In this document: piece by piece, positions 29,604 through 34,798 of the stretch | Layout: the number at the start of each line of letters is the position of its first letter | How positions within the stretch are numbered: position 1 is the stretch's first letter | Assembly: GCA_963745075.1 (NCBI GenBank) | Contig: CAVUWV010000013.1 | Span: forward strand, 161,585 to 225,584 | Source: Candidatus Hydrogenedentota bacterium | GTDB taxonomy: Bacteria; Hydrogenedentota; Hydrogenedentia; Hydrogenedentales; SLHB01 | Direction of reading: 5' to 3' | DNA: 64,000 bases | Notes under the pieces: generated by a model | The model's database searches: none | What the model saw: the letters and a program-made list of their open reading frames with translations, nothing else | Told to the model about the DNA's origin: nothing | Position numbers and translations under genes: made by a program

Positions 29604-30209
29604 CGGCAATCGGCCGGTCTGAGAGGAACATCCCCCTTGATCCCCCTTCGAAGGGGGAGCGGCTGGACCGGAGCTATTGGTAGTTTTGCAGGGTTTCGGG
29701 CAAATCTATATTCCTCTCCCGGCGCGCCAATCGAAGCGTCGACTCTTGTCGGTTCCGTCTTCAAAGGGGGAAGGTCGCGGGGAGGCTGGAGTCCGGAGTG
29801 GCGCGGGGTGCACCCCCCTGACTTTTGACGAAACAAGGGGGAGTGGCGATTGCGGTCCCCGTTCGCGAGGATGACATGCGGATTTCGGATCTTGTCGATA
29901 TCTTCTTGACAGCCGCGGACTTGGGACAATCGAGGCAGGGGCGGCTCTGGAGTCCAGAGGTCCGCAGGGGGTGGGGGGTGCACCCATTTCTTTGTGACGA
30001 TTCAAGGGGGGTGATCCGATTGCGGATTGCGGATTCTCGGGTGTTCGGGGCGGGTGCGGTGTCGTGTTTCATGGGCAGAGTTCTCCCTTATAGTTATTGC
30101 GCGGCGGGTTGCAGTGGAAGGCCGGCAGGTAGCGCGGCGCGAATAGTGAAGGACAGAACAATGGAACGCGGATTTGGCGGATGGTGCGAATTGGCGCGGA
30201 TCGTTGGTT

Positions 30210-30252
30210 GGGGAGTTGGGAAGCCAACGGGCGGGACGCCCGTTCCCCATTG
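30210..30252 (+). repeat. 43-bp direct repeat, copy 1
   Basis: GGGGAGTTGGGAAGCCAACGGGCGGGACGCCCGTTCCCCATTG, identical to 33687-33729. Confidence 0.9.
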
Positions 30253-30446
30253 GACCTGCGCTGGAGTGGGAGCCCGCAGCGTGCGGCAACCAAATGCGAA
30301 ATTCGAAGCACGAAATCCGAAACAAATCCCAATGACCGAATATCTAATGATCGAAACACGCTGTCGGACTGGTGGGAAGGAAGGCGAAGAGGATCTCACC
30401 ACGAACTGCACGAAACACACGAAGATGGGAGGGTTGGAGTCTGGAA

Positions 30447-30598
30447 TCACTGGGAGCGCCAGGCACCAGCCTGGCGAATGCGGGGACAGTCTGGCGAAAC
30501 ATCGGAGCGACTCGATCGACGCTGCGCAATCCCTGGTCCTGAACGTATCCGGCAAACCCTTCGAACCCCGCCAGGCTGGTGCCTGGCGCTCCCAGTGA
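30447..30598. repeat. REP doublet (30-bp perfect inverted repeat)
   Basis: TCACTGGGAGCGCCAGGCACCAGCCTGGCG at 30447-30476, reverse complement at 30569-30598. Confidence 0.85.
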
Positions 30599-30748
30599 GA
30601 TCCGCCCATTCGCGCGCTGTGTTGAGAGGGGCTCTAGCTCTCAACGGTTCGGCGATCCCACCAACTCGGGCAGGGAACGCGACCACACAGTGTCAACCCC
30701 ACCGCGATGTCGACGATGTACGTGCACGTGCCTTGGTAATACAGTCCG

Positions 30749-30777
30749 TTGCCTCCGTGCCATGTCTGCGGTATACT
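30749..30777 (+). promoter_or_regulatory. Putative cassette (Pc-like) promoter
   Basis: TTGCCT-N17-TATACT facing the cassette; a second extended -10 (TGaTATGAT) at 30863-30871. Confidence 0.5.
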
Positions 30778-30940
30778 ATGCTGTCATTGGGAGGGGAAGA
30801 ATCTAGGGGAGAACGGGGCGTTGTTCAGAAACCATGCATTCTCCCACGTTCGTTGCAGAGCATGATATGATGCCTTGCCTTTACAGGCTTTAGACCAACA
30901 TTGCCGAAGGGGTTTTGCACCGCAATCGCGCGGCCAAAAG

Positions 30941-30975
30941 GCGTTATGAAGAAACCGTATAACCGCTGTTCGATA
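30941..30975 (+). other. attI-like recombination site
   Basis: GCGTTAT...CCGTATAACCGCTG/TTCGATA; core GTTCGAT matches the downstream attC R''; no attC-type hairpin upstream. Confidence 0.55.
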
Positions 30976-31002
30976 GATACAAGAAACGAGGAATAGCCCA
31001 CG

Positions 31003-31499
31003 ATGGACGCGTACAAAGAGATCGAAGATATGATCGCGGCCGAATATGGCAAGAGCACCACTACCAGAAAAGCTATAGGCGATTTCATGCTACGGATGAC
31101 CATGCGGTAAACGTCAAGAGCAACAACGTAGCCAAGCAGAACTACTCACCCAACATGATTTCGATCCAGAAGATGCACAAATGGGTATTCGAGAGCGCAA
31201 TGAACTAAGCTTCATATTCGTCGATTACAAAGTAGAGGCGGTGGCGAATTGGGAATACTGAGCAGAAGTCCAAACTGATTCCAATTGAGCACATCAGCTG
31301 GGACTGCCTCTCGATAGAAGCTCAGGGCTATGGAGTAATTCAGAAGGTCGGCACCTTGAAGAACGACGCAGAAACAGACAAAGCGGGACTTCTACAAAGG
31401 GTTTCTGGCGGCCTACGAGAAGTACCGGGAAAAGAGCGCAGGAAGCACGAGAACTTCTCCAAACGATTCATCAAGAATACCGACAGCATCGACTGGTGA
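31003..31499 (+). pseudogene. Putative type II restriction endonuclease (~165 aa); several frameshifts, possibly assembly errors
   Basis: GAGG RBS; stitched frames give MDAYKEIEDMIAAEYGKSTTTRKAIGDF..DDHAVNVKSNN..NYSPNMISIQKMHKWVFE..NELSFIFVDY..IPIEHISWDCLSIEAQGYGVIQ..SIDW; PD-(D/E)xK-like; precedes an MTase. Confidence 0.6.
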
Positions 31500-31519
31500 C
31501 ATACGAGGAGCGATAGCCG

Positions 31520-33065
31520 ATGAGCTACCAAGAAAGAATTCGGAGACTTCCAGACTCCGCTTCTGCTGGCGCGGCGCGTCGCGGCACTGATCAAGGAAGA
31601 AGAGAAGCACGTTGGAACAGTCGTCGAGCCAACGTGCGGAGTTGGTACTTTTCTGCAGGCGACTGCCGAACTTTTCGGCGAGTCACCTAACTACTGGGGA
31701 TTTGACGTAAACGCCGACTACGTCAAGCGGCCAGTGCTGCCCTTGCACGGATCGGTCCGCCAGCAACCAATGTCCAGCAGCGCGATTTCTACACGATCAA
31801 CTGGCGGGAATTCCTTTCTAAACAGCCTGGTCCACTGCTTATCATCGGTAACCCACCATGGATCACGAATGCTGGAATGGGGGTTATCGGGGGGGCGAAC
31901 CTCCCTGAGAAGTCAAACTTTCAGGGCCACGGCGGCTTTGCGGCGAAGACCGGCAAAGGCGAATTTCGACATTTCCGAATGGATGCTTATCAGGCTGCTG
32001 GAAGCGCTGCAGGGAACACGGGCTGCCATCGCGATGCTCTGCAAGACGGCAACGGCGCGAAAAGTTCTTCGGCACGCATGGCTCAACGGACTTGAAGCGG
32101 GCCATCTTCACTTCACCTGATAGACGCCGCCGCAGAATTCGGCGTGTCAGTGGACGCATGTTTGTTGTACACCCATACGGGCAACGGGCGGGACCGAGTC
32201 CATGGCAACGGTCTACCGCAGCCTATCCTTTGATGAACCGCTGCAGACCTTCGGTTTGTTCGCCGGAGAGTTGGTCTCAGACATAGATGCCTACCGTGCG
32301 TTGCGCGATCTCGACGGATTGGAGTACCGAAAATGGCGGTCCGGAGTGAAACATGACGCGGCGAAAGGTGATGGAGTTCACGCGAGACAATGGCTCCATT
32401 CGTGAACGGACTTGGGGAGCGGTGCGAACTGGAAGACGACTATATTTTCCCCTCGCTCAAGTCGTCCGATTTAGCGAACGGCAGACTGCGGCCCACACGA
32501 TTCGTGTTACTCACGCAGCGTCGGGTAACCGACCAGACCGACGAAATCCGCAACGTAGTGCGCCAAAGACTTGGCGTTACCTTCTCGACCACGCGAAGCA
32601 ACTCGACAAGAGAGGAAGTTCCATCTACGCGAAACGTGCGCGGTTCTCCGTCTTTGGCGTGGGGGACTACTCGTTCTCGCCTGCGAAAGTCGCCATTTCG
32701 GGGCTCTACAAGAATCTTCAGTTCCAGGCGGTAGGGAGCTCTGGCGGCAAACCGATCATGGTCGACGACACGTGTAACTTCATTCCATGCGACTCTATGT
32801 CAGAGGCCGAGTTCTTTGCCGATCTCCTGAACTCCGAACCGGCCCAGCGATTCATATCGGCTCTTGTGTTCCCGGACGCGAAACGGCCCGTCACTATCGA
32901 CGTCCTCTCAAACGAATTGACCTCAAGAAGCTAGCGGAGCACGAAGGACAGGAGACGAAGGCCATCGAGTACCTTTCTTCGTCATCCCTTGAGTCAAGCA
33001 ATCAACGTCTTCTAGTCTTTCAGGAGAGAAAAATATCGAACCAAGAAATCCACCGTACCCCGTAA
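31520..33065 (+). pseudogene. Amino (N6-adenine type) DNA methyltransferase; several frameshifts, possibly assembly errors
   Basis: EFGDFQTP, VVEPTCGVGTF (motif I), LIIGNPPW (motif IV), NFDISEW, AMLCKT, WRSGVKHD, KVAISGLYK across frames. Confidence 0.85.
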
Positions 33066-33111
33066 GGCGCGCGGACGCGCCTCAAGGGTCCGGTGATTTC
33101 GGTCGTTGCCG
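33035..33111 (+). other. attC site
   Basis: R'' ATCGAAC, 5-nt spacer, L'' AATCCACC (8 nt, one extra C), central hairpin AGGCGCGCGGACGCGCCT, L' GGTGATT (7 nt), 6-nt spacer, R' GTTGCCG. Confidence 0.85.
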
Positions 33112-33686
33112 CGCGCAGAAAGGATGCATGCTAACCTATGGTGCCTCCTGCCCTGTTAACTGATTCGCCCTAAAGAGATTCAGGACTTCAGGTCGCACAC
33201 AAACTACGAAATCCGAAACTAATTCAAATGTCCGAAATCAGAATGACCGAAACGTTGTATCGTGAATTCTTGAGCTCTCTCAGGACCGCACACAGAGCCG
33301 CGCGGTCCTTGTCGGAGATAGAAAGCCGGCTCCCCGCCGCCTTCGTTGGAAGCACGCGCGGATCTCGGCTGCGCGATGTGGCACCGGTGCGGGGTGACGG
33401 GAAGCTGCCCCATCGCTGAAAACGCCCATCCAAAACCTTCTACATCTATAGATTGCGCGGATTTCATGAAGAGAATTTGTCCGCAGGTGGCGCAGATGGT
33501 CGCAGATTAACACGAGAGATTGAGGTTACAAAGATTACCCTGCGCGGCGTAGTCGCAACCCAAACCAAGAGTTTCATCCACAGATTACACACAGATTACA
33601 CCGATTGAAGGGGTAAAAAGAATTTGAGAAGGAATGCCGGCGTTGCGCAGGCTGCCGGAGAAGGGTTGTGGATTGCGATCACGGTG

Positions 33687-33729
33687 GGGGAGTTGGGAAG
33701 CCAACGGGCGGGACGCCCGTTCCCCATTG
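33687..33729 (+). repeat. 43-bp direct repeat, copy 2
   Basis: Identical to 30210-30252. Confidence 0.9.
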
Positions 33730-33752
33730 AGGTTGGGAATTGTGTGTTGGGG

Positions 33753-34798
33753 TTATTCGTAGAACCACGCGGCGGGGATTGCGCGGAGTTGGAGCGACAG
33801 GCCGCCGGTGTAGTTGAAGTAGGTGAGGTAGGCCGTGTCGCCGACCCAGGTGACGGCGGGGTAGGCCCAGGCGTCATCGGGGGCGTCTTCGATGTTTCGG
33901 AGGTGCTCCCATGTTTCGCCTTCCGTTTCAGATAGGGCTGCTGTCAAGGGATTCCTCTTGGATCCACCGGGATTGTGGTTCCAGATGGCCAGCAGGTCGC
34001 CCGTTTTCGGGAATCCGGCTGATGGATACCGGCGCGGCGGTTCCGGTCAATTCGGTTGGGGCCGGCTTCGACCACGTCTCGCCGCCGTCCTCGGAAATGC
34101 TCTGATACTGGCCGCCGAGTTGGGTGCGCATGAGCATCGAGCACGCGGCCGTCCTTCAGCTCGATGCAGGCGGGTTCCCAGGAGCCGGTCTCGGGCTGGA
34201 CCCGCTGCGACTCGCGCCACGTTTCGCCGTCGTCGTCGGAGAGGTAGCAGTAGCTGTCGCCGCCTTCCCAGGCTTCCAGGAGGATTCGGCCGGACTGTGA
34301 GGCGGATAGAGCGGCCGTTGGTCAGGCCGGTGTACTTTCCGTCGGGGCTGAGCTGTTTTGGGGACGCGAAGGTTTTGCCCTCGTCGGAGGAGGTTCGCAT
34401 CATGCACCCGGCAATCGCGTGCTCTCGGTGTTCTTCTGGCAGTAGAACAGCGCGATCCGGTCGTCCTTGAGCCGGAGAAAGTTGACCTCCATCACGTTGC
34501 AGCCGCCGTCGTTTTCGACGAGGGTGTATTTTTCGCCCCAGGTGCGCCCGCCGTCCGTGGAAACCTTGCCTGAGATCCGGGCCGGACCGTGGTCCGCGCC
34601 GCTGCCCGCGTAGAACTCCGTCCAGCCCAAGAGCAGCGAACCGTCCTTGAGCGGAATGATGGCGGCCTCGCTGTTGCGTGGATTCTCGGGGCCCACCGGT
34701 ACGACGGTCAGGTGGAATGCCATATCTGCGGGCTCAGCGGCAAGCGCGCCGGAGACCAAGAGACAAATGCACGTTATGGATGTAAGAAGGAGTTTCAA
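33753..34798 (-). pseudogene. Secreted BNR/Asp-box sialidase-family protein; many frameshifts
   Basis: PRNSEAAIIPLKDG; Asp boxes STDGGRTW, SSDEGKTF, SEDGGETW; AYP; start approximate. Confidence 0.75.

Follow-up and report, generated by a model that had tools for sequence, protein, structure and literature searches.

The window analyzed in this study, a stretch of 64,000 nucleotides from the Candidatus Hydrogenedentota genome designated G000, contained an integron-like element on its plus strand, comprising a promoter-like site, an attI site, one gene cassette with a predicted restriction-modification (R-M) gene pair, an attC site, and a conserved non-coding 3' flank. The attC site (33035..33111) was identified based on its fold, a covariance model, and the boundaries of homologues, with the recombinogenic hairpin on the bottom strand and the crossover between G33105 and T33106. 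One arm consists of R'' (33035-33041), a 5-nt spacer, and L'' (33047-33054), the latter with one extra base (C33050, at the fourth position), and the other arm of L' (33092-33098), a 6-nt spacer, and R' (33105-33111). The L boxes pair at 7 of 7 positions with C33050 skipped, and the bottom-strand fold has an energy of -23.7 kcal/mol (z -4.8), which was equalled by none of 200 shuffles. These positions agree with the 7-5-8/7-6-7 spacing and the single unpaired C in L'' described in the first-pass annotation of this DNA.

Additionally, an attC covariance model was trained on 16 sites from unrelated loci (98% of cells paired; two of 18 sites, one doubtful and one very long, were left out before alignment). 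This independently built model also recovered the annotated site, with 33035-33107 ranking first of nine matches in the window (25.9 bits, E 5e-4, all 10 pairs formed; runner-up, 15.4 bits). In the genome-wide run, where 150 of 5,835 candidates were scored, one site on contig C33 was returned and the window attC was not among the output. At the other end of the cassette, GTTCGATA (30968), located 35 nt before the ATG at 31003, is the reverse complement of TATCGAAC (33034), exactly where the annotation had placed the 8-nt complement of R''.

The integrated cassette is 2,137 bp long (30969..33105, plus strand), and its boundaries were shared by homologues, as had been anticipated for 30969/33105. 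Locus L080 aligned with the window at 83.7% identity over 30968-33107 with different neighbours on both sides, and five attC homologues aligned as far as GTT and diverged beyond. A search with the first gene yielded 29 metagenomic loci, of which 25 were listed and 24 counted (one had too little flank; four partial matches were excluded). The core site was present 32-36 nt before the ATG in 12 of these 24 homologues, against a background of 4% of random windows, and was missing in the other 12. The relative G012 has a decayed copy with 72% identity and an extent equal to that of the window cassette. In L055 (G012:C126), the R-M cassette genes are intact and the att ends decayed, and this locus is a cassette on its way to a fixed chromosomal locus. 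A search of plasmids revealed none carrying the cassette. The canonical attC with an extrahelical base, the 5' core complementary to R'', and the shared homologue boundaries confirm that 30969-33105 is a genuine integron gene cassette and, by its boundaries, a mobile unit. A single attC was found in the window, and a CALIN by definition has two or more of them with no intI.

The cassette contained two genes on the plus strand, both frameshifted in the assembly. The second gene (31520..33096; 523 aa in homologues) encodes an N6-adenine DNA methyltransferase, based on a match to PADLOC MTase_II (E 4e-152) and on motif I and the NPPW/NPPY motif found in the intact homologue L055 and the window fragments, with NPPW in the window. 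The last ~20 methyltransferase residues are encoded across the attC hairpin (33034-33096), and likewise in L080, L075, and L055. The first gene (31003..31499; 164 aa in intact homologues) matched no Pfam, PADLOC, or NCBIfam family. A structure model of its L080 homologue (pLDDT 88.9) has the PD-(D/E)xK fold and resembled HincII (Foldseek E 5e-6) and R.SwaI (VIA Z 12.7, rmsd 2.7 over 154 residues), and weak HincII-family matches were found in 5 of 18 distant relatives. Asp27 and Lys39 are invariant in all 20 members compared. The family also has an invariant Asn37, which aligns with the HincII Asp preceding the catalytic Lys, a residue that we take to be the second catalytic Asp; cutting is not assured because Asn replaces it. 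By fold and profile, the gene pair is predicted to be a type II R-M system, in line with the defence-type pair that had been annotated.

The window copy of the cassette contained about 15 frameshifts in 2.05 kb, a density far higher than that of most flanking genes (0-2 indels per 1-3 kb). These frameshifts would be expected if the R-M cassette were a true pseudogene and the whole unit a dead relic. However, the comparison with L080, which covered 570 codons clear of gaps, identified no nonsense change, the differences (judged from raw codon counts) were mainly at third positions as in intact controls, and many indels lie in short runs or dinucleotide repeats, which are slip-prone contexts. 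The sequence comparisons make assembly errors a likely source of the cassette frameshifts, ahead of decay, and we regard a dead relic as rather unlikely. The conserved gene adjoining the cassette also has three frameshifts. Relative to G003, a conserved gene with BNR repeats and a gene resembling glycoside hydrolases have frameshifts (33754-34721, 35634, and 37323), and these are probably assembly errors.

Upstream of the cassette, the attI core (30940..30974, plus strand) has its crossover between G30968 and T30969, and the region around 30968 does not fold (z 0.43). The annotation had called this site attI-like without an attC hairpin and had suggested comparing 30941-30975 with an attI linked to intI. 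Such a counterpart, absent from the assembly of the window, was found on an IMG/VR contig (L113), whose attI is identical to the window core at 27 of 31 bases. L113 encodes a full IntI (TIGR02249, 487 bits) that ends 165 bp upstream of attI in the same orientation, and it was the sole intact element with a window-type attI found. The L113/L163 integron carries an SMR-family cassette, and its two neighbours, a P-type ATPase gene and a phage tape-measure gene, are both truncated.

In the window, homology to L113 begins at a TAG (30804..30806, plus strand), 27 bp past the promoter motif, and the alignment with the intact element and truncated copies places the former intI stop codon there. The stop codon lies 162 bp from the crossover, compared with 165 bp in L113, and the conserved spacer between them (30807..30939, plus strand) has two attI-core-like repeats and is 59% identical to that of L113. 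The stop codon alone remains of intI. At related loci, intI fragments on the same strand stop about 170 bp upstream of the crossover; these loci keep 3' tips of intI or internal deletions of many lengths, with endpoints that vary from locus to locus, and the mutual homology of the attI copies ends at the crossover. The co-oriented layout, with intI transcribed towards attI and the cassettes, was observed in L113, L014, L021, L038, and others, and in the window via the stop-codon remnant. This homology identifies the upstream site as a true attI that belongs to a family of co-oriented ('reverse') integrons. Because homology to L113 starts at the TAG, intI has been deleted down to its stop codon, and the reading of the window as an integron with intI deleted is strongly supported by the alignments. 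Unlike a complete integron, the window has attI with no adjacent intI. A plasmid search for the attI region returned intI fragments only.

The same homology bears on the origin of the cassette as a lone cassette (SALIN) inserted off target at a genomic attG beside a host promoter. One attC with no intI nearby matches the SALIN definition in the available part of its description. Against this, the 165 bp that served as the target derive from an integron, are homologous to a true attI, and are absent from the orthologous site of congeners. The homology to the intact integron L113 refutes an attG origin, and we consider this explanation extremely improbable.

The annotated TTGCCT-N17-TATACT motif is located at 30749..30777 (plus strand), where it forms a sigma70-type promoter-like site 191 bp from the crossover. 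On its own, this motif is at chance level (2 found, 1.6 expected). It is conserved at related loci, with the window promoter motif at five loci in 4 of 135 genomes and at none with a reversed control, and four of the five loci then carry a window-type attI at differing distances. In less deleted copies, the promoter lies directly before the intI start. Promoter-like sites 100-520 bp upstream of attI were found on the sense strand at 11 of 22 loci and on the antisense strand at 3 of 22. No intact intI was found behind the promoter motif of the window at the related loci or in their genomes. By analogy with the less deleted copies, 30749-30777 is likely the former intI promoter, retained after the deletion, and this surviving promoter is predicted, as a likely consequence, to transcribe the cassette.

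On the other side, a conserved non-coding flank of about 95 bp (33106..33198, plus strand) follows the crossover of the last attC in the window, on C24 of the same genome, and in G014, G019, G020, and G001. This segment does not fit the canonical attC spacing; it represents either the original right end of the platform or an ancient cassette lacking an ORF. A search for the flank directly attached to an empty attI found no case, the six pattern matches being preceded by an attC, by a degenerate attC, or by a cassette gene.

No tyrosine recombinase was found on the contig of the window, which extends to the whole contig what the annotation had reported for the window. The G000 genome encodes four tyrosine recombinases (XerD, XerC, and two phage-type), and none of them exceeded the integron-integrase cut-off. 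This assembly is 89.7% complete, so intI could be missing from it. The first-pass annotation had offered two readings, an integron with intI deleted or a satellite served in trans; homology to L113 from the stop codon onward upholds the deletion, and service in trans found no source within the assembly. A satellite platform still in use, with a solo attI on which an IntI encoded at another place in the cell or by a visiting element acts, would agree with the nearly intact attI core, with the occurrence of an intact element on a viral contig (L113), and with the description of CALINs as mobilisable in trans in the literature available in part. A visiting IntI acting on the site is possible. However, G000 has no intI in its assembly, a full IntI was found in only 2 of 34 attI-positive genomes, in both adjoining a different attI subtype, and no pair of loci had the same deletion with different cassettes. 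We consider it unlikely that the platform is still served in trans, and favor the deleted integron.

The search for further copies of the upstream region, as suggested in the annotation, identified six solo attI sites in G000, with between one and three cassette-like genes downstream of each. Five belong to the window family (the window, two on C24, and one each on C31 and C33), and the sixth, on C31, is a second subtype. At G000:C31:46381-47712 (minus strand), two tandem units have a common 121-bp promoter-like segment (83% identical) and different attI subtypes, and the second unit retains an intI 3' tip. At G000:C24:309069-310700, two attI-plus-cassette units (a glyoxalase and a 23S-IVP four-helix protein) lie just upstream of tpiA, and these units are absent at the tpiA site in five congeners. 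G000:C33:10040-12200 has a solo attI with three cassettes (cupin, DUF4304, and radical SAM). The window site is empty in the congeners G003, G004, and G005, where the flanking genes are 221-274 bp apart compared with 4.1 kb, and the site on C33 is likewise empty in G002. No attI was found at the orthologous stretches checked in congeners.

Homologues of the upstream site of the window were present in 8 of 60 relatives. The exact attI pattern was found at 24 loci among 185,579 genomes, with titles that include Hydrogenedentota, Planctomycetota, Desulfobacterota-type, and Synergistota; at least three phyla besides Hydrogenedentota are represented. Of these loci, 21 had at least 1.3 kb upstream and none had a full intI there (highest coverage, 68%); the 17 genomes behind the pattern loci contained 31 attI copies and no full-length IntI. 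Within the phylum, the attI sequence model detected 63 copies in 34 of 135 genomes, and a full IntI was found in six of the 135 when the best 15 or fewer candidates per genome were scored. The sites used to build model R1, the window site among them, had been selected by pattern, and their own matches are by construction. None of the 63 copies had a full-length intI beside it, in genomes that are mostly fragmented MAGs and kin that are not independent.

Several attI-type platforms carry defence-like genes, including a ParA-like ATPase plus SIR2 and reverse transcriptases (L210:6398-8262, L207:4143-6239, downstream of L026, and L111). In G005, a putative NurA/HerA-like pair lies behind a window-type promoter without attI.

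The number of sites raises the alternative that promoter, attI, and 3' flank spread as a non-autonomous mobile platform after the loss of intI. In addition to the six attI sites in G000 and the empty window and C33 sites in congeners, the attI-region tree (49 rows; matches of <110 bases and duplicates left out) agrees with this, since 11 copies from five genomes of the host's family group together with moderate support (86/88), and this group is limited to that family and includes copies sharing the promoter or the 3' flank. In contrast, the other copies in G000 are 53-69% identical to the attI region of the window and copies in other genera are 74-79% identical, which speaks for repeated acquisitions rather than recent duplication inside the genome. 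Moreover, the deletion endpoints differ at every locus, and an all-against-all comparison of the copies found no terminal repeats (inverted repeats included), target duplications, or vehicle. Spread as a mobile unit is accordingly improbable, and we retain the deletion of intI from an acquired integron as the preferred reading. Dense dispersed intergenic repeats flank the element at 29620-30600 and 33200-33730, one family of which has 215 pattern hits in the genome. A 47-bp direct repeat (30206 and 33683) was considered as a target duplication and rejected as a dispersed repeat with 7 close and 40 looser copies.

Taken together, it is highly probable that the window holds an integron with its intI deleted, comprising attI and one R-M cassette, with a surviving upstream promoter that likely transcribes the cassette. 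As the genome search detected no integrase (assembly 89.7% complete), the array is likely static. The ancestral element would have had the order promoter, intI, about 165 bp, attI, and cassettes, with intI pointing towards attI as in L113. Horizontal transfer would have brought it into this intergenic region rich in repeats, as suggested by the empty site in three congeners. The boundaries suggest that, before the deletion, IntI brought the cassette in through recombination of attC with attI, and the homology shows that the deletion then removed intI between the promoter and the stop codon. With intI gone, shuffling would have ceased and the promoter would have come to lie beside the cassette, whose predicted role is restriction of incoming DNA as a conventional type II R-M system. 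A clean internal deletion in a co-oriented integron that stops recombination and keeps the cassette expressed may explain why such deletions are common here.

More tentatively, and on balance doubtfully, these sites could represent a cross-phylum family that lands at many sites, captures one to three cassettes (often for defence), deletes intI while retaining promoter and attI, and thereby leaves several pads per genome that are ready for expression and reloadable by a visiting IntI. If this is true, cryptic integrons recognizable with an attI model, and not off-target insertions, would account for many of the SALINs and small CALINs of these phyla. For the origin of integrase-less cassettes, Loot et al. 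propose off-target insertion in the available part of their report. Integrase-less attI sites would explain the source of some 'orphan' gene cassettes, and a family recognizable by sequence across phyla allows a direct test of where such cassettes come from. In addition, L113 provides a cognate IntI-attI pair from understudied anaerobes, and the window cassette a compact R-M system for testing.

The window resembles CALINs and SALINs, as far as these are described in the available parts of the literature, in having an attC-bounded cassette without intI nearby, and differs from them in retaining a true attI, a promoter-like site, and an intI stop codon. Loss of intI is among the listed origins of CALINs (PMC4889954; PMC8618304), and SALINs are defined by the lack of any further att site, with attG sites as their proposed place of origin (Loot et al., bioRxiv 10.1101/2022.09.11.507474). 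Pseudogenes of intI were found near only 15 of 279 CALINs, 95% being without a recognizable one (Cury et al. 2016, PMC4889954); remnants as short as that of the window would escape a protein search.

The window family is similar in layout to the integrons of Treponema, where intI of the co-oriented ('inverted integrase') type is transcribed towards attI and loss with remnants is described in T. phagedenis (PMC3607928), and of Archaea, where attI lies downstream of intI and is semi-conserved across phyla (bioRxiv 10.1101/2022.02.06.479319). Unlike these integrons, which in the available descriptions have one platform per locus, the window family has up to six sites per genome with one to three cassettes each and almost never a full intI. 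In Xanthomonas, intI was lost by deletions, frameshifts, or stops and the arrays are static (bioRxiv 10.1101/2025.06.18.660453). A survey of integrase inactivation predicted 43-46% of integrases to be inactive (PMC3108266), and inactivation is viewed as a response to unregulated expression (PMC3108266; 10.1101/2025.06.18.660453). The loss of intI and, probably, the frozen arrays are common to Xanthomonas and the window family; the described Xanthomonas integron occupies one ancestral locus (ilvD), whereas the window family has many lineage-specific sites and near-total loss of intI.

Compact type II R-M systems are prevalent in chromosomal-integron cassettes (bioRxiv 10.1101/2024.07.02.601686, as available in part). 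The window pair resembles the HincII/SwaI/EcoRV class in combining a small endonuclease with an N6-adenine methyltransferase, and differs in its endonuclease of 164 aa (13-22% identical to solved relatives), in having Asn where the second catalytic Asp would be expected, and in a methyltransferase frame that overlaps attC. Our literature search, with subscription papers and bioRxiv supplements (e.g., the archaeal attI alignment) outside its scope, found no published account of the window attI family, of dispersed solo attI platforms, or of Hydrogenedentota integrons. The loss of IntI, co-oriented integrons, and R-M cassettes are already in print in the sources available in part, and the dispersed, almost always integrase-less attI family did not appear in this literature search.
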